A DNA stretch of 64,000 bases, from NCBI GenBank assembly GCA_041649315.1, contig JBAZNJ010000002.1, positions 64,851 through 128,850 of the forward strand, written 5' to 3'. The notes beneath the pieces are model-generated. The model made no database searches. It was not told where the DNA came from and saw nothing but the letters and a program-made list of their open reading frames with translations. Of this stretch, positions 19,638 through 47,924 are shown one piece after another. The position numbers and the translations under genes are program-made. The stretch comes from Patescibacteria group bacterium. GTDB taxonomy: Bacteria; Patescibacteriota; Patescibacteriia; Patescibacteriales; UBA12465. Each line of letters opens with the position of its first letter. Within the stretch, counting starts at the first letter, position 1.

Positions 19638-20939
19638 ATGTCAAGAATTCTAATCAAAGAAGCAAAAGAGAAAGTAAGCGGTAGCGTGACGATTGCCGGT
19701 TGGGTTCGTAATCTCCGGGCGCATAAAGGTTTGGTTTTTATTGATTTAGTTGATATTTCCGGGACGATGCAGGTCGTTTTTACAGCCGATCAGGACGGCT
19801 ATGAAATCGCGGAGAAGTTGACGCTGGAAAGCGTGGTTGAGGTTGTAGGCAATCTTCAAGAAAAACCGGCTAAGAAGAATGATCCGAATCCGGTAAAAGA
19901 TTTTGAATTATCGGCTACGGGCGTTAGCTTGGTTTCTCTAGCGGACGAAAATTTACCGATTCCGGTTTTAGTCAAAGCGGATAATGAAGCTAATTTAGAT
20001 AATCGTTTTGATTGGCGTTGGCTTGACTTACGACGTCCGGAACATCAGTTAATTTTTAAGGTTTGGACGAAATTAGAAGAGGGAATGAGGGAATATTTTC
20101 GGCAAAATGATTTTACTCAGCTTTATACTCCATGTTTAATGAGTACGGCCTCTGAATCCGGCGCTGAGGTTTTTGCTGTTAAATATTTTGACCGTCAGGC
20201 CTATTTAGCCCAGTCGCCGCAATTTTATAAACAGATGGCGATGGCCGCCGGTTTGGAGCGGGTTTTTATGGTTGGCACGGTTTTCCGAGCCGAGCCGTCT
20301 TTTACGACGCGCCATGTTACGGAATTTACCGGATGGGACGCGGAGGTTTCTTATGCTTCATATTCAGATGTGATGTCCATGGAAGAAGATATGTTGATTG
20401 CCGGTTTTCAGAAAGTTAAAGAAGATTTGGGTTTAGAGATTGAAGTGCCGGCTAAGCCATTTCCGAAGATGACATTAGCCGTCGCGAAGGAAAAATTAAA
20501 AGCCGCGGGAATAAAGAGCGAAAAAAATGATGATTTTTCCACGGAAGAGGAAAAAGTGCTCGGGGAAATAATTAAGAAAGAAAATGGCCATGATTTCGTA
20601 TTTGTGACTGATTATCCGATTACCGCCCGCCCCTTTTACCACATGCGCCATGAAAGCAACCCAGAACTGACTAAAAGTTTTGATCTTATTTATCGTGGTT
20701 TAGAAATAACGACCGGCGCCGAGCGTGAGCATCGCCTTGATGTTTTAGAAAAGCAAGCGCAGGAGAAGGGGATGAATCTTAATGAACTCAAAGATTATTT
20801 GAATTTTTTCCGTTATGGTTGCCCGGGGCATAGCGGGCTTGGTATCGGACCGGCGCGGATTATAATGAAAATGCTTAATTTGGGAAGCGTTAAGGAGGCC
20901 TGCTTCTTGCCACGGGATGTTAAGCGTTTAACCCCTTAA
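19638..20939 (+). CDS. aspS: Aspartyl-tRNA synthetase, short archaeal/eukaryal-type class IIb
   Basis: 433 aa; QSPQFYKQ, FRAEPSFTTRHVTEF and GLGIGPARI motifs. Confidence 0.9.
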   Translation: MSRILIKEAKEKVSGSVTIAGWVRNLRAHKGLVFIDLVDISGTMQVVFTADQDGYEIAEKLTLESVVEVVGNLQEKPAKKNDPNPVKDFELSATGVSLVSLADENLPIPVLVKADNEANLDNRFDWRWLDLRRPEHQLIFKVWTKLEEGMREYFRQNDFTQLYTPCLMSTASESGAEVFAVKYFDRQAYLAQSPQFYKQMAMAAGLERVFMVGTVFRAEPSFTTRHVTEFTGWDAEVSYASYSDVMSMEEDMLIAGFQKVKEDLGLEIEVPAKPFPKMTLAVAKEKLKAAGIKSEKNDDFSTEEEKVLGEIIKKENGHDFVFVTDYPITARPFYHMRHESNPELTKSFDLIYRGLEITTGAEREHRLDVLEKQAQEKGMNLNELKDYLNFFRYGCPGHSGLGIGPARIIMKMLNLGSVKEACFLPRDVKRLTP

Positions 20940-21033: not shown

Positions 21034-22425
21034 ATGTCTTATATTCCAGTTAAATCATTATATCGCCATACGAAGGATTACCTCGGTCGAGAAATCTCCG
21101 TGGCTGGTTGGGTTCGAACAGCGCGCGGCTCTAAAGAATTTGGATTTATCGAATTAAATGACGGATCTTTTTTTAAAGGGCTTCAGATTGTTTTTAGCGC
21201 GGATCTGCCGAATTTCGCTGTGTTGGAAAATATTGCTGTTGGTTCGTCCTTGGAAGTGAGTGGCGAACTCGTGGAGTCCCCGGCCGCCGGCCAAGCCTTT
21301 GAGCTTAAGGCGAAAGAAATAAAAATTATAAACGCCGCGCCGGCTGATTATCCTTTACAGAAAAAAAGGCATAGCTTTGAATTCTTGCGGACAATCGCGC
21401 ATCTGCGCGGCCGGAGTAATACTTTTTCCGCGGTTTTCCGTCTCCGTTCGGCGCTTAGTTTTGCAATCCATCAATTTTTTAAAGAGGAAGGTTTTTCTTA
21501 TATTCATACCCCGATAATCTCGACGAGCGATTGCGAGGGAGCGGGCGAGATGTTCCAGGTCACGACTTTAGATTTAAAAAATCCAGCCAAAGACGATAAA
21601 GGAGAAATTGATTACAAGGAGGATTTTTTCGGCCAATCGGCCGGATTGACCGTAAGTGGCCAGCTTAATGCCGAAGCCCTAGTTATGGGCCTGAATAAGG
21701 TTTATACTTTCGGACCGACTTTCCGGGCGGAAAATTCAAATACGACCCGGCATGCTTCGGAATTCTGGATGATGGAGCCGGAAATGGCTTTTGCGGATTT
21801 AAATGATGATATGGATTTAGCGGAAAAGATGTTGAAATATTTGATTTCTTATGTTCTAAAAGAATTACCGGAAGAGATGGAATTTTTCAATAAGTTTATT
21901 GATCCGGGGATTATGGAGCGTTTGGATAATATTCTTAAGTCAGAATTCGGGCGTATCTCTTATACTGAAGCGATTAGTATCTTAGAAAAATCCGGGGAGA
22001 AATTCGTTTATCCGGTTGAATGGGGGATTGATTTGCAGACCGAACATGAACGCTATCTAACGGATAAGGTTTATCAAAAGCCGATTTTTGTTATTGATTA
22101 TCCGAAAGATATCAAAGCTTTCTATATGCGGCTGAATGATGATGGAAAAACCGTCGCGGCCATGGATTTACTCGTGCCCGGCGTCGGCGAAATTATCGGC
22201 GGCAGCCAAAGAGAAGAGCGCTTGGAAAAATTAGAGCAAAGGATGGATGAGATGGGCTTAAAAAAGGAAGATTACGCCTGGTATCTTGATTTGCGCAAAT
22301 ACGGTTCGGTGCCACATGCCGGCTTTGGTCTTGGTTTTGAGCGCTTGATTATGTATTTGTCCGGCATGGCTAATATCCGCGACGTGATTCCGTTCCCGCG
22401 TACACCAAAGAGCGCGGAGTTTTAG
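21034..22425 (+). CDS. asnS: Asparaginyl-tRNA synthetase
   Basis: 463 aa; [24 protein letters not shown] and GFGLGFERL motifs. Confidence 0.93.
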
Positions 22426-38914: not shown

Positions 38915-41203
38915 ATGAACGAATCAGAAACAAGAGCCGAATATATTGACCCAAAACTTAAAGCGAGCGGTTGGGGTGAAATTGAGGGGTCAAAGGTTCT
39001 GCGCGAATTTCGCATTACTGACGGCAAAATTCAAACAGGTGGCACAAGAAGCAAGCCGGAGATTGCCGACTATATTTTGGTGTATAAAAATCAAAAGATT
39101 GGTGTGATAGAAGCCAAAGCCGAGGGTTTGGCTGTCACCGAAGGAGTGGCGCAAGCCAAAGCGTATGCCGAGAAACTGCATATTGATTATACCTACGCCA
39201 CCAATGGTAAAGAGATTTACGCGATATCCATGAAAACCGGCGAGGAAGGCGAGATTGCCGACTTCCCAACTCCTGACGAACTTTGGAATAATACTTTTGC
39301 GGATTGGAGCGAATGGAAAGAAAAATTTGCGAGCGTTCCCAACGAAGGTGAATACGGCAAAAGATATTATCAGGAAATTGCCATCAATAATGTTTTAAAT
39401 GCGGTAGCGGAAGAAAAAGATAGAATACTTTTGACAATGGCTACTGGAACCGGAAAAACCGCCGTTGCTTTTCAAGTCGCTTGGAAGCTTTTTCAAACTC
39501 GCTGGAATTTAAAACGAGACGGCGCGCGAAGACCGCGAATTTTGTTTTTAGCCGACCGGAATATTTTAGCCGATCAAGCGTTTAACACTTTTTCCGCTTT
39601 TAATGAAGACGCGTTGGTTCGTATTAATCCTTTAGATATTCGTAAAAAGGGCGGGGTGCCGATGAGCGGTAGCGTTTATTTTACAATCTTCCAAACTTTC
39701 ATGAGCGGTCCGAACGGTACGCCGTATTTCGGCGATTATCCGCCAGATTTTTTCGATTTTATTATTATTGACGAGTGCCATCGCGGCGGCGCGAATGACG
39801 AGAGTAATTGGCGCGGGATTTTGGAATATTTTTCGCCGGCGGTTCAGCTTGGTTTGACTGCCACGCCGAAACGGCAAGATAATATTGATACTTATAAATA
39901 TTTTGGCGAACCGGTTTATACTTATTCGCTAAAAGAAGGCGTAAATGACGGATTTTTAACGCCGTTTAAAGTCAAGAGAATTAAAACAACACTAGATGAT
40001 TATGTTTACACCTCGGACGACCAGATTATTGAGGGTGAAGTAGAAGAAGGTAAAATCTATGAAGAGCCGGATTTCAATAAAATTATTGTTATCAAAGAGC
40101 GTGAAGCCAAAAGGGTGCGAGTTGTTTTGGATGAAATAAACCAGAATGAGAAAACAATTATTTTTTGCGCTACGCAAGATCATGCTTTAGCTGTTCGTGA
40201 TTTGGTAAATCAAATGAAAGAAAGTAAAGATCCAAATTATTGTGTAAGAGTAACAGCTAACGACGGCGCGCGCGGAGAACAATTTTTGCGAGAATTTCAA
40301 GACAATGAAAAAACAATCCCCACAATTTTAACCACTTCTCAAAAACTTTCTACCGGCGTAGACGCGCGAAATATCCGCAATATCGTTTTAATGAGACCGG
40401 TCAATTCAATGATTGAGTTTAAACAAATTATCGGTCGTGGAACTAGGCTTTTTGACGGCAAGGAATATTTTACCATTTATGATTTTGTTGATGCTTATAA
40501 GCATTTTTCCGATCCGGAATGGGATGGTGAGCCGATTGATGAAACGACCGAGAAAGAACCGCGTGAATCAAGAGAAAAATGTATTAAAGAGCCATTGTCA
40601 GAATCACTGGAAGAGCCAAAGAAGAAATTAAAAATCAAATTACGCGACGGCAAAGAACGGGAAATCCAGCATATGATCGCCACTTCTTTTTGGGGTACCG
40701 ACGGGAAGCCGATTTCGGCCGAAGAGTTTTTAAAAAATATTTTTGGAACTTTGCCGGAATTTTTTAAGAATGAGGAAGAGCTAAGAAAAATCTGGGCCAA
40801 TCCGGCAACCAGAAAAATGTTTTTGGAAAAAATGTCGGAGTTGGGCTACGATCGAGAAAAATTAGAAAATTTACAAATAATGGTTAACGCCGCTGACAGC
40901 GATTTGTTTGATGTTTTAGCTTATATCTCTTTCGCGATCCAACCGATTACGCGAGTTGAAAGAGTTAGCGAAGTTAAAAAGATTATTTTTGAGAAATTGA
41001 ATGATAAAGAAAAAGAGTTTTTGAATTTTGTATTAACGAAATATATTGAAAAAGGGTTTGAAGAGCTGGACGAAGAGAAATTGCCGGTTTTATTAAATCT
41101 GAAATATAACGCCATCGCCAATGCTGAACAAAAGCTCGGCGATGTGGAAAAAATCCGTTCAATTTTTTTCTCCTTTCAGAAGAAGCTATATATGAAAGTG
41201 TGA
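38915..41203 (+). CDS. hsdR: Type I R-M restriction subunit R (EcoEI-like, 762 aa)
   Basis: HSDR_N-type start NESETRAEYIDPKLKASGW, helicase motifs ATGTGKT and DECHRG, EcoEI_R_C-like tail (DSDLFDVLAYISF). Confidence 0.95.
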   Translation: MNESETRAEYIDPKLKASGWGEIEGSKVLREFRITDGKIQTGGTRSKPEIADYILVYKNQKIGVIEAKAEGLAVTEGVAQAKAYAEKLHIDYTYATNGKEIYAISMKTGEEGEIADFPTPDELWNNTFADWSEWKEKFASVPNEGEYGKRYYQEIAINNVLNAVAEEKDRILLTMATGTGKTAVAFQVAWKLFQTRWNLKRDGARRPRILFLADRNILADQAFNTFSAFNEDALVRINPLDIRKKGGVPMSGSVYFTIFQTFMSGPNGTPYFGDYPPDFFDFIIIDECHRGGANDESNWRGILEYFSPAVQLGLTATPKRQDNIDTYKYFGEPVYTYSLKEGVNDGFLTPFKVKRIKTTLDDYVYTSDDQIIEGEVEEGKIYEEPDFNKIIVIKEREAKRVRVVLDEINQNEKTIIFCATQDHALAVRDLVNQMKESKDPNYCVRVTANDGARGEQFLREFQDNEKTIPTILTTSQKLSTGVDARNIRNIVLMRPVNSMIEFKQIIGRGTRLFDGKEYFTIYDFVDAYKHFSDPEWDGEPIDETTEKEPRESREKCIKEPLSESLEEPKKKLKIKLRDGKEREIQHMIATSFWGTDGKPISAEEFLKNIFGTLPEFFKNEEELRKIWANPATRKMFLEKMSELGYDREKLENLQIMVNAADSDLFDVLAYISFAIQPITRVERVSEVKKIIFEKLNDKEKEFLNFVLTKYIEKGFEELDEEKLPVLLNLKYNAIANAEQKLGDVEKIRSIFFSFQKKLYMKV

Positions 41204-42625: not shown

Positions 42626-43051
42626 ATGGAGGATTTTTTAATTCAAAACCAAAAGGAAAATGATTTCGCGGATTGGGCAAAACTAAAATCTAAAATTCAT
42701 TTTCATCATGATGAGAATAAGATATATTTTAAAAATAGAGAAATTTGGTGGGCGAGCTTGGGGGTTAATATTGGAAAAGAGGAAAATGGGAAGAATGGAA
42801 GATTCGAGCGGCCGGTTTTGATATTAAATAAAATAAATAAATATACGCTAATCATTGTTCCTTTATCAAGTAAAATTAAGCAAGACAGATTCCATTATCA
42901 ATTACTTGTTAATAATCGGTTTGAATCAGTTTTGATTTTTCAAGTCCGGACGATTAGCAGTAAAAGATTGAGTCGTAAAATCGGATGTTTGGATAAGATT
43001 AGTTTTCAAGAAGTGAAAGATAAAATTAATTCTATTTTCGCTTGTAATTAA
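42626..43051 (+). CDS. PemK/MazF-fold toxin-like protein with no adjacent antitoxin ORF
   Basis: REIWWASLGVNIGKEENG...RPVLIL...LIIVPLSSK matches the MazF/PemK pattern. The 118-bp upstream spacer has no ORF. Confidence 0.7.
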   Translation: MEDFLIQNQKENDFADWAKLKSKIHFHHDENKIYFKNREIWWASLGVNIGKEENGKNGRFERPVLILNKINKYTLIIVPLSSKIKQDRFHYQLLVNNRFESVLIFQVRTISSKRLSRKIGCLDKISFQEVKDKINSIFACN

Positions 43052-45475: not shown

Positions 45476-46735
45476 ATGGATAAATATCTAAATTCCGCCA
45501 AGATGGCTTTTAAATCCATGCTCGCCAATCGCCTGCGCACGGCTTTGACTATGCTCGGCATCGTTATTGGCGTGGCCAGCGTGATTGTCGTTTATTCGGC
45601 CGGGGAGGGAATTTATGATTTATTATTAAGCCAGGTTGAGTCATTCGGCACGAATATCATTGAGACCGAAATCAAAGTGCCGAGCAATAAAAAGGGCGGT
45701 GAAGCGGAAACAGATAACGCGATGTCTTTGGCTTCCGGTGTTCAGATTACAACTTTAAAAATAGAAGACCTTGAAGATATAAAAAAGCTCAGCAATGTTT
45801 CCGGCGGCTATGCCGGAGTTATGAGCCAGGATTGGGTGAGTTATGGCGGCGAAATTAAGCGCGCCTTCCTTTTCGGCGCGAGCGCGGATTATATTAATAT
45901 TGACCGAGGCGAACTTGAGGCCGGCCGGTTTTTCAGTGAGGCCGAAGACAAGTCCTTGGCGCAAGTGGCGGTTTTAGGTTCTAAAGTCAAAGATGATTTG
46001 TTCGGCGATTCGGACGCAATCGGCCGCTTTATTACCGTCCATAAAAGCAAATATCAGGTCATCGGTGTGATGGAAGAGCGCGGCGGTTCTTTTGGCATGA
46101 ATTTTGATGATTATGTTTTTTTACCGCTTCGGACTTTACAGAAGCGGATTATGGGCATTGACCATGTGATGTATATGGTTCATCAGCTTTATGATCCGAA
46201 TCGGGCGGACGAAACCGCGGCTGAGGCCAGGGAAATTTTGCGTGATAATCATGAAATCAGTGATCCGGCCAAGGACGATTTCCGGGTCGTGACTATGGAC
46301 GAGATGATGGATATGCTTAATACCATAACCGGCGCTTTGACGATTTTATTATTGGCAATAATTATTATTTCGCTGATTGTCGGCGGGGTCGGAATTTTAA
46401 ATGTGATGCACGTGACTGTTACCGAACGGACTTCAGAGATTGGTTTGCGTAAGGCGGTCGGCGCTAAATACCGCGATATTATCCGGCAATTTTTAACCGA
46501 ATCTGTGGTTATAACTTTATGCGGTGGCTTGCTCGGTATTATTGTCGGTGTTTTAGTATCCTATGGTTTAGCGATTGGTGCCCGGCGTTTCGGCCTTGAT
46601 TGGCATTTTTCCGTCCCGCTAAAGGCCTTTATCGTTTCCTTACTATTTTCTTCGGCTTTTGGCATTATCTTCGGACTTGGTCCGGCTAAGCGGGCGGCCC
46701 GGCTTGATCCAGTTGAGGCAATGCGGAAGGAGTAG
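45476..46735 (+). CDS. Second MacB/FtsX-type ABC permease (paralog)
   Basis: 419 aa, same architecture; SEIGLRKAVGA motif. Confidence 0.9.
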   Translation: MDKYLNSAKMAFKSMLANRLRTALTMLGIVIGVASVIVVYSAGEGIYDLLLSQVESFGTNIIETEIKVPSNKKGGEAETDNAMSLASGVQITTLKIEDLEDIKKLSNVSGGYAGVMSQDWVSYGGEIKRAFLFGASADYINIDRGELEAGRFFSEAEDKSLAQVAVLGSKVKDDLFGDSDAIGRFITVHKSKYQVIGVMEERGGSFGMNFDDYVFLPLRTLQKRIMGIDHVMYMVHQLYDPNRADETAAEAREILRDNHEISDPAKDDFRVVTMDEMMDMLNTITGALTILLLAIIIISLIVGGVGILNVMHVTVTERTSEIGLRKAVGAKYRDIIRQFLTESVVITLCGGLLGIIVGVLVSYGLAIGARRFGLDWHFSVPLKAFIVSLLFSSAFGIIFGLGPAKRAARLDPVEAMRKE

Positions 46736-46857
46736 GGGGTGGGCGCAGGGCAGAAGGGGATTTATAGAGAGCGCAGGAAAGGGTCGAAAAAATCAGAGGG
46801 TAAAGGCTAAAAATAACAGGGAATTGACATAACGCCGTAATCTGTTATTATATTAGT

Positions 46858-46887
46858 AAATATTTCTATTGAAATATTTTGTTTTTT
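46858..46887 (+). terminator. Intrinsic terminator-like hairpin downstream of the ABC operon
   Basis: AAATATTTC-tatt-GAAATATTT followed by TGTTTTTT. Confidence 0.5.
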
Positions 46888-46936
46888 GCGGGTTGTCCGA
46901 CTATTCAGATTCGGCTTTCCGCCTACAATTTAATAT

Positions 46937-47241
46937 TCCCGGGTGGCGCAGCGGTAGCGCAGTTGGCTGTGAAATGACGCAGCTTCCTCAAGTAATTGAG
47001 GTCGAATAACGAGGTGAATTGTCTGGAAGCCTAAATCCGAGAGGATATGGTAATCAGCAGCCAAGGCCTGAAATTTCAGGCAAGGTTCAGAGACTATCCC
47101 GAAAGGGAGTAGGTCCGTCGCAAGACGGCCCGAAGCGCCTCGCATCCATTTTAGTGGATGATGATATAGTCCACCCCATTAAGAAATTAGTGGATAAGTG
47201 TAACCAATTGGTCGTCGGTTCGAATCCGACCCCGGGAGCCA
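46937..47241 (+). tRNA. tRNA-Asn(GUU) split by a group I intron; exons 46937-46970 and 47201-47241, CCA encoded
   Basis: Acceptor TCCCGGG/CCCGGGA, D arm GCGC-AGCGGTA-GCGC, anticodon stem GTTGG/CCAAT, spliced loop CTGTTAA, T arm GTCGG-TTCGAAT-CCGAC, discriminator G. The body closely resembles Bacillus tRNA-Asn from memory. Confidence 0.85.
46971..47200 (+). ncRNA. Group I self-splicing intron (230 nt, no ORF)
   Basis: P1 pairs exon GCTGT with GCAGC (46979-83), with a U-G pair at the splice site. Also seen: conserved GCCTAAATC, R-like GTTCAGAGACTA and S-like GATATAGTCC cores, GNRA loops (GTAA, GAAA, GCAA), and a terminal G at 47200. Confidence 0.85.
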
Positions 47242-47251
47242 ACGTAGATTA

Positions 47252-47280
47252 AGCGAGGTTAAATCCTCGTTTTTTCTTTT
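47252..47280 (+). terminator. Intrinsic terminator after the tRNA
   Basis: GCGAGG-ttaaat-CCTCGT followed by TTTTTCTTTT. Confidence 0.6.
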
Positions 47281-47435
47281 ATTTTCGCCAAAATATGTCG
47301 GTTCGAACCTAGAGATTTCATTGTTAAATTTTTCAACATTATTTCGAGAAGGAATAAGTCATAAAGATTTATAAAATTAGGCCCCTTTTTTTGTTTTATG
47401 CTATAATTTATATGTAATTCAATAATATAAAAATT

Positions 47436-47924
47436 ATGAATAATGAAAATAAAGAGTGTTGTCCTAAATTTAACCCAGAAAAATGGGATAAAAAAAATCA
47501 CGTTTGGGACAATAAATTATTCATAAAAGAAACCATCCCGACTATTTTTCACATTCCGCTTCCATATATGATTGGAAAAAGTGTTGGAAAAATGTGTAAA
47601 TTAGTTGAAGACGCTAAAGTGGCGCCTATTAATAGCGAAGATGCCTTGTTACTATTCCGTGACCCAAGCGCTTTTAAGTCGGAAATATATTTAACAACAA
47701 CCAGCACCGTGATAGGCGCCGAAAATGTAAATATTTCTGGTAATTTTATTAGTCGTGTGTTTGCTGGACCGTATAATACAGTGCCCAAATTTATAAAGGA
47801 AATGAGTGAGTATTTGACCGCGGAAGGAAAAGTAGCGGTTGATTATTATATTCATTATGCTTATTGCCCAAAATGTGCCAAAAGATATGGTAATAATTAT
47901 ATGATTATTTTCGCCAAGATTTAA
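47436..47924 (+). CDS. Hypothetical Cys-containing protein (162 aa; CCPKF...CPKC)
   Basis: ORF; recalls an uncharacterised conserved family starting ...ECCPKF(N/D)PE.WD. No function known to me. Confidence 0.55.
   Translation: MNNENKECCPKFNPEKWDKKNHVWDNKLFIKETIPTIFHIPLPYMIGKSVGKMCKLVEDAKVAPINSEDALLLFRDPSAFKSEIYLTTTSTVIGAENVNISGNFISRVFAGPYNTVPKFIKEMSEYLTAEGKVAVDYYIHYAYCPKCAKRYGNNYMIIFAKI

Follow-up and report, generated by a model that had tools for sequence, protein, structure and literature searches.

A probable group I intron between anticodon positions 35 and 36 of a Falkowbacteria-related tRNA-Asn(GUU) gene

In Williams 2020 (bioRxiv 10.1101/2020.01.27.920355), the number of intron-bearing bacterial tRNA types was raised from four classical ones to 21. 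As relayed by Nakagawa et al. (mSystems 2026, PMC13011429; preprint 2025), this set includes a tRNA-Asn type, 'Asn.4Ug', which is at times miscalled 'Thr.2Ug'. The latter authors examined 95 complete Patescibacteria genomes and described 15 tRNA-Asn(GUU) and three tRNA-Asp introns inserted between anticodon positions 35 and 36. The intron of GCA_016700035.1 self-splices precisely at 35/36 in vitro, which was demonstrated by sequencing of the product and with a terminal-G mutant, and long tRNA-Asn introns were found to contain HNH endonuclease open reading frames (ORFs). The four complete genomes of the ABY1 class in that study have one tRNA-Asn each by tRNAscan-SE, and no ABY1 genome appears in the table of intron-containing tRNAs of that study. 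Here we analyse a gene of this kind in a 64-kb stretch of a Patescibacteria metagenome-assembled genome (MAG), contig JBAZNJ010000002.1, which is called the window below. The parts of the tRNA unit described here lie on its forward (+) strand.

Positions 46937-47241 of the window very probably constitute a tRNA-Asn(GUU) gene of a Candidatus Falkowbacteria-related member of the Patescibacteria, split between U35 and U36 by a 230-nt ORF-less group I intron. An earlier note on this DNA knew of no described tRNA-Asn example; the two studies above had already published the class. The intron shares 62-70% global identity with five published Patescibacteria tRNA-Asn introns, with all the core blocks aligned, and 67% with the validated intron of GCA_016700035.1, a member of the Saccharimonadia. 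The locus is a real, functional-looking and ordinary member of the published intron family.

The interrupted gene and the fold of its intron

An Rfam scan of the whole window at the gathering threshold returned a single match. This is RF00028, the group I catalytic intron, at 46961-47193 (+), with 82.5 bits (gathering score 50), an E value of 1.8e-19 and the full model (1-253) matched. The intron itself extends from 46971 to 47200. It directly follows a U, its last base is a G, and it contains GCCTAAATC, GTTCAGAGACTA and GATATAGTCC as core strings. Exon 1 (46937-46970) carries tRNA positions 1-35, i.e. the acceptor 5′ strand, the D arm, the anticodon-stem 5′ strand and C32 U33 G34 U35. Exon 2 (47201-47241) provides U36 A37 A38, the anticodon-stem 3′ strand, the variable loop, the T arm, the acceptor 3′ strand and G73, and ends with an encoded CCA (47239-47241). 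Joined in silico, the exons give 75 nt which form a canonical cloverleaf and which ARAGORN calls tRNA-Asn(gtt). Run on the window with default settings, the same program reports no tRNA anywhere in the 64 kb, and no other tRNA was found there with or without its intron mode. Two mechanical ORFs of 71 and 77 aa overlap the intron; neither has a Pfam match, even at E ≤ 1. An endonuclease gene is too big for a 230-nt intron.

Besides the Rfam match, the intron is supported by its folding energy and by covariation. The single-sequence minimum-free-energy fold lies at z = -4.97 relative to shuffles and recovers P2, P3, P5a, P6a, P7.1, P7.2, P8 and P9. For the comparative analysis, homologues were retrieved with the pattern GGTGAATTG-N50-80-GGTTCAGAGACTA, keeping one genome per species, which gave at least 120 loci. 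The alignment comprises 52 introns with 12 nt of exon on each side: that of the window, that of a syntenic relative (locus L002) and 50 further ORF-less homologues. Pairs were counted against the structure derived from the window sequence, and the controls consisted of partners slid by 1-3 columns and of 500 shuffles. Over the whole structure 90.8% of the cells are paired, compared with 34-42% in the slid controls. Compensatory changes affect 47 of the 73 pairs, and none of the 500 shuffles reaches any of the observed measures. Double changes are seen in P2, P3, P4, P5, P5a, P6a, P7.1, P7.2, P8, P9.0 and P9.

The structure begins with P1 (46965-46984), a helix between the strand GGCUGU(G) (46965-46971) and (C)GCAGCU (46978-46984), which is the internal guide sequence. 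The helix contains the wobble pair U46970·G46979 and is closed by a loop L1 of 6 nt. P2 (46986-47001; CCUCAA-GUAA-UUGAGG) carries a GNRA loop, L2 (GUAA); all six of its pairs show compensatory changes and 94.9% of the cells are paired. In P3, whose strands lie at 47010-47016 and 47136-47142, the pair counts give 98.9% of paired cells and compensatory changes at three of the seven pairs. The P4-P5-P5a domain (47020-47059) consists of P4 (47020-47026/47054-47059; 99.7% paired), P5 (47030-31/47049-50; 99%) and P5a (47035-38/47043-46), which is capped by a GAGA loop. It is followed at 47060-47086 by P6 (47060-61/47085-86) and P6a (47066-71/47076-81), the latter with 6/6 compensatory pairs and 91% of the cells paired. 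The guanosine-binding helix P7 is built from a 5′ strand at 47090-47096 (G-AGACUA, with A47091 bulged) and from UAGUCC at 47167-47172. Together with the preceding J8/7 (AUGAUA), this 3′ strand forms an invariant core at 47161-47172.

Two hairpins separate the 5′ strand of P7 from the 3′ strand of P3. One (47097-47100/47105-47108) has a GAAA loop, is 99.4% paired where present and shows compensatory changes at all four pairs; the other (47112-47119/47124-47131) has a GCAA loop and 7/7 compensatory pairs. Because of this position they are P7.1 and P7.2. In the P8 hairpin (47143-47160), where 86.5% of the cells are paired, five of the six outer pairs change in a compensatory manner and C47146-G47157 is invariant. 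The 3′ region (47173-47200) comprises P9.0, the P9 hairpin (47176-47193; GAAA loop, six of seven pairs compensatory) and the terminal G47200. Save for one U-C mismatch in P7.2, the helices of the window intron are all intact.

In the proposed mechanism, the unit has a promoter (46824-46851) and a terminator (47251-47282) of its own, between which it would be transcribed. P1 would form between the guide GCAGC(U) and the exon nucleotides (G30 G31) C32 U33 G34 U35, with its U35·G wobble marking the 5′ splice site. P7 would bind an exogenous guanosine, which would attack after U46970. The terminal G47200, placed by P9.0, would then take the place of this guanosine, and the freed 3′-OH of U35 would attack after G47200, so that the exons are joined with a 7-nt anticodon loop, CUGUUAA. 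The L2 positions (its G and As) and the GAAA of L9 are nearly invariant, and we take the P5 motif CCUAAA...UAUGG to resemble the 11-nt GAAA-tetraloop receptor. By analogy with the Azoarcus intron and other compact bacterial tRNA introns, L9 probably docks into this receptor-like motif of P5 and L2 into P8.

Some points weigh against the proposed assignment and have to be set beside this evidence. That the copy in the window splices is predicted from the behaviour of its homologues. The view is limited to 64 kb of the genome, and a second, intron-less tRNA-Asn gene may lie elsewhere. The alignment was seeded with sequences sharing two exact core strings and hence covers only part of the family. 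In P7, all six pairs are invariant in 52/52 sequences (100% paired) and coincide with conserved core strings in the RF00028 alignment; since they never vary, this helix is neutral and gives no covariation support. Inspection revealed no convincing P10 between the 3′ exon and L1, and the anticodon stem presumably stands in its place. Lastly, the validated intron of GCA_016700035.1 has one long hairpin between P7 and P3′ whereas the window intron has P7.1 and P7.2.

The sequence features listed in the earlier note were all found in place in our reading of 46700-47500. It had described exons forming a cloverleaf with encoded CCA and anticodon GUU, as the ARAGORN call on the spliced 75 nt bears out. 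Its identification of a group I intron agrees with an RF00028 score well above the gathering score. For the splice-site U-G pair in its P1, the Rfam alignment sets the conserved U·G of the model on U46970·G46979. The P2 hairpin and the GAAA- and GCAA-capped hairpins which it had listed are present and covary in the 52 homologues, the ORFs overlapping the intron, which it had called ORF-less, have no Pfam match, and the terminal G which it had described is invariant (G47200, 52/52).

Subgroup, transcription signals and splice sites

The earlier note had likened the core strings to those of the cyanobacterial tRNA-Leu (IC3-type) introns. The strings are indeed present but the IC3 suggestion did not hold. 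The Michel-Westhof scheme defines subgroup IA by the peripheral helices P7.1 and P7.2, and IC3 introns are not known to have helices between P7 and P3′. At this place the window intron has a 37-nt insert with two covarying hairpins. Its insertion at Asn 35/36 is also not one of the classical IC3 combinations of host and site (Leu 34/35, fMet 33/34, Arg or Ile2 36/37).

An IC3-type intron similar to those of cyanobacterial tRNA-Leu(UAA) and Azoarcus tRNA-Ile would have to occupy an insertion site new to that lineage. Three observations speak for it. The strings GGUGAAUUG, GGUUCAGAGACUA and GAUAUAGUC also occur in Planctomycetes tRNA(CAU) 36/37 introns, which by position would belong to the classical IC3 type. 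Three members of the Asn family from the Limnocylindria have no P7-P3′ insert and hence look IC3-like. The compact architecture with GNRA loops on P2 and P9 resembles that of Azoarcus. The position of the planctomycete introns corresponds to that of the classical IC3 type Ile2.5Ug of Williams, and the resemblance in the core strings is real but not diagnostic. Against the IC3 reading stand the covarying P7.1 and P7.2, which indicate IA by the Michel-Westhof scheme, and the fact that the 35/36 site itself has already been described. Furthermore, the subgroup covariance models of Nakagawa et al. (PMC13011429) placed 25 of the 28 introns at 35/36 in IA, and no Patescibacteria tRNA intron in IC. 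We judge an IC3 type very improbable; the published assignment of the 35/36 family is IA.

Within this homologous family, P7 and P3′ are joined by a linker that comes in three forms. Two hairpins are present in the window intron and in other Parcubacteria-type members. One long hairpin with the conserved GUGAGYCC..AACAAUAAUC is found in tRNA-Asn introns of the Saccharimonadia and in the planctomycete tRNA(CAU) 36/37 introns. No insert exists in the three tRNA-Asn introns from the Limnocylindria. Besides the window, the loci concerned are L033, L085, L087; L023, L024, L090 and L095. The IA hallmark is thus gained or lost in one homologous family, and among bacterial tRNA introns the line between IA and IC3 becomes less sharp.

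The gene is flanked by putative signals of its own. A strong sigma-70-type promoter is predicted at 46824-46851 (TTGACA, a 16-nt spacer, TATTAT and an extended -10 TG; 11/12 consensus positions). The pattern TTGACAT ... TGnTAnnAT recurs 5′ of orthologous tRNA-Asn genes (L002, L009, L032, L036, L100, L111) although the upstream genes differ. Between this promoter and the tRNA, about 50 nt 5′ of the latter, lies a perfect, AT-rich leader hairpin (46858-46879; AAAUAUUUC-UAUU-GAAAUAUUU) which is directly followed by a U-run (46880-46887) and thus looks like a terminator. The promoter-hairpin-U-run block at 46824-46888 is identical in L002 (6301-6365). A hairpin and U-run with other stem sequences occur in L009, L032, L036, L061, L100 and L111, despite different upstream genes. 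Attenuation and RNA processing are conceivable roles of this leader element, of which Nakagawa et al. (PMC13011429) make no mention. On the 3′ side, an intrinsic terminator is predicted at 47251-47282, with an 8-bp stem (47251-47272) and a T-run, and a similar hairpin and T-run are found 3′ of orthologous tRNA-Asn genes.

These signals bear on a second alternative, in which the locus is a splicing-dead relic, i.e. a tRNA pseudogene, and Asn codons are decoded by an intron-less gene elsewhere. With only 64 kb in view of a MAG contig of at least 270 kb and no homing-endonuclease ORF in the intron, such a reading can be formulated. However, all positions without variation among the 52 sequences are preserved in this copy (including the U·G pair, the P7 core, J8/7 and the terminal G), and its helices are intact apart from the single U-C mismatch. 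The promoter and the terminator are intact and conserved in relatives, and the syntenic relative L002 retains the same interrupted gene. A dead relic is very improbable in our estimation, and we regard the locus as a probably functional intron-bearing tRNA-Asn gene.

When the same 230-nt intron is moved upstream by 2 nt, so that it starts after U33 (46968) and ends with G47198, the gene becomes a tRNA-Thr(UGU) interrupted at 33/34. This is the result of ARAGORN in intron mode on the window, tRNA-Thr (tgt) i(33,230). The boundaries at 46968 and 47198 are likewise U and G, the product forms a cloverleaf with a UGU anticodon, and tFind and ARAGORN make the Thr call for many homologues too, a confusion also noted by Nakagawa et al. 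(PMC13011429). The 5′ splice site is nevertheless well defined by P1. Among the 52 aligned introns, U35 faces G in every sequence and U33 (46968) faces A in every sequence, so that U33 cannot be the wobble nucleotide. The pair G46971-C46978, which spans the 5′ splice site, covaries (GC 23, AU 11, CG 7, UA 2), which shows that P1 continues across the 35/36 site.

At the 3′ splice site, P9.0 (47173-74 with 47198-99) covaries (C-G 40, U-A 9), and the alternative terminal G47198 lies within this helix; it is A or U, not G, in 10 of the 52 sequences. In 16 homologues, a U/G-bounded intron is possible only with the Asn reading, and no U33/G alternative exists. The earlier note had placed the insertion at 35/36, and U35·G, the covarying P9.0 and the terminal G confirm this throughout the 52 homologues.

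The tRNA body points in the same direction. It has U1-A72 and G73, and the first base is U in 83 of 84 family members. U1-A72 and G73 are features of tRNA-Asn while the threonyl-tRNA synthetase (ThrRS) recognises G1-C72. Among the loci retrieved there are two tRNA-Thr genes of Patescibacteria, and both start with G; as these loci contain 10 intron-less tRNAs and none for Asn, the comparison yields only a weak point on the first base of tRNA-Thr. ARAGORN often misplaces the 3′ boundary in the relatives, which leads to spurious Tyr, His, Ser and 'Stop' calls for genes that prove to be tRNA-Asn on inspection. Taken with the sequenced spliced product of a homologue, which has the 35/36 junction, these comparative data exclude the U33/Thr(UGU) alternative that the earlier note had flagged, and we give it hardly any credence.

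Host, neighbouring genes and related loci

The gene upstream of the tRNA (45476-46735) encodes a MacB/FtsX-type ABC permease. At NCBI, its product has a 100% identical counterpart in a 'Patescibacteria group bacterium' MAG, and a protein of Candidatus Falkowbacteria GW2011_GWF2_43_32 shares 81% identity with it. The host is thus found among the Patescibacteria, the group in which NCBI places the Falkowbacteria. The contig carrying the GW2011_GWF2_43_32 permease is L002. There, the permease pair likewise precedes the interrupted tRNA-Asn gene, with an RF00028 score of 94.6 bits, an intron 77% identical and a tRNA 96% identical to those of the window. The same interrupted gene at a syntenic locus fits vertical inheritance, and the intron was probably transmitted in this way.

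As the earlier note had stated, an asnS gene lies in the window. It is located at 21034-22425 (NCBIfam NF003037, 688.6 bits; cut-off 414) and adjoins a non-discriminating-type aspS immediately upstream (19638-20939; NF003483, 462.5 bits). The presence of asnS implies direct charging of tRNA-Asn and hence a need for this tRNA in the organism. An indirect route to Asn-tRNA(Asn) may exist in the genome alongside the direct one.

Two side observations concern the surroundings and the 3′ end of the gene. Upstream of the ABC transporter operon, the region 38915-41203 and 42626-43051 encodes the R subunit of a type I restriction enzyme (ResIII, EcoEI_R_C, HSDR_N). On the syntenic Falkowbacteria-like contig, genes for a helicase, Pyr_excise and a PemK toxin are found there instead, which indicates that the region upstream of the permeases is variable. 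In addition, the CCA end is encoded in the window gene and in L061 and is not encoded in L002, L032, L036, L100, L111 and L121; CCA encoding therefore flips among near neighbours.

In the survey of related genomes, the window intron falls into a family that is abundant among the Patescibacteria. At least 82 tRNA-Asn 35/36 introns were recognised among the 120 loci listed (83 by an independent pattern-based parse). They come mostly from Saccharibacteria, Parcubacteria/Paceibacterota, Falkowbacteria, Uhrbacteria and similar MAGs. About one quarter to one third of the listed relatives are forms of 420-580 nt with a long L1, where the published long introns hold their insert. A homing-endonuclease ORF in this loop is probably common among the relatives.

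As a rationalisation of the site, a 'queuosine-family' idea was considered: since C32-U33-G34-U35 is common to the four tRNAs with GUN anticodons, each of them might be a target of 35/36 introns. The idea is compatible with Asn, Asp (L066) and the published Tyr. An apparent His case (L029) was discarded because it is an ARAGORN mis-parse of a tRNA-Asn gene.

Some of the retrieved loci fall outside this picture. About 18 of those listed match both core strings with no ARAGORN tRNA nearby (L012, L020, L021, L035, L040, L044, L045, L049, L052, L062, L063, L072, L084, L089, L099 and others). They originate from Clostridium, Faecalibacillus, Acidobacteria, Haliangium, a cyanobacterium and others, and are probably group I introns with other hosts, for instance tmRNA, protein genes or IStrons. 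A further set consists of third-party MAGs titled 'uncultured Gammaproteobacteria bacterium' (L030, L042, L061, L069, L073, L074, L092, L100, L107, L109, L111). Their tRNA-Asn exons are up to 99% and their introns 75-81% identical to those of the window. Either the taxonomy of these records is unreliable or the contigs are mis-binned.

Relevance and comparison with described introns

The same arrangement is known from related bacteria, where it was also tested in vitro, and the locus in the window is an ordinary new example. Its main relevance is for annotation, a point already made in the literature. Default ARAGORN misses the gene and the intron mode reports a tRNA-Thr. A genome treated in this way would be scored as devoid of tRNA-Asn or be credited with a surplus tRNA-Thr, and inferences on completeness and codon usage would be distorted. 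The present analysis contributes covariation across 52 species in support of the family's splice sites and helices, and three forms of the P7-P3′ linker within one homologous family. It further adds a conserved leader element, the hairpin and U-run that separate promoter and tRNA, and a further ORF-less example from a Falkowbacteria-like lineage, in which it was apparently inherited vertically.

We believe that one speculative consequence is worth mentioning, although we give it no more than an outside chance. The intron and the leader hairpin with its U-run (46858-46887) might act together in RNA-level control of the tRNA-Asn supply. If so, premature termination and guanosine/GTP-dependent splicing would tie mature tRNA-Asn to nucleotide or growth status. 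Such control would operate in an organism stripped of most protein regulators and would account for the persistence of the intron in hundreds of streamlined genomes. In Nakagawa et al. (PMC13011429), a regulatory role of the introns is only speculated upon.

Among the more distant systems, the phage IA2 introns (T4 td, Twort orf142-I2) are similar in having P7.1 and P7.2 between P7 and P3′. They differ in that they reside in protein-coding genes, are larger and often contain endonuclease ORFs. The IC3 introns of Azoarcus tRNA-Ile(CAU) and Anabaena/Nostoc tRNA-Leu(UAA) share more with the window intron. They are compact (about 200-250 nt), ORF-less and inserted in the anticodon loop of a bacterial tRNA, with a P1 made of anticodon-loop nucleotides and GNRA loops on P2 and P9. 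Their J3/4-P4, J6/7-P7 and J8/7-P7 core sequences are very similar, and the two-step guanosine-initiated chemistry is the same. In contrast, they interrupt different host tRNAs at 36/37 (Azoarcus) and 34/35 (Anabaena/Nostoc), while the intron described here is located at Asn 35/36 and has P7.1 and P7.2.

The closest system is the Asn family of Nakagawa et al. and Williams. The window intron lies outside the published list, which is drawn from complete genomes only, and its nearest named relatives are Falkowbacteria. It has a minimal L1 of 6 nt, in contrast to the long relatives of 420-580 nt. The two-hairpin P7-P3′ linker is shared with the Paceibacteria members GCA_016699245.1 and GCA_026016225.1. 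With the family as a whole, the window intron has in common the host tRNA, the 35/36 site, the host phylum and the core sequences, as well as a P1 in which CUGU pairs with GCAG, the U35·G pair and the ...GUG/UAAC 3′ junction.

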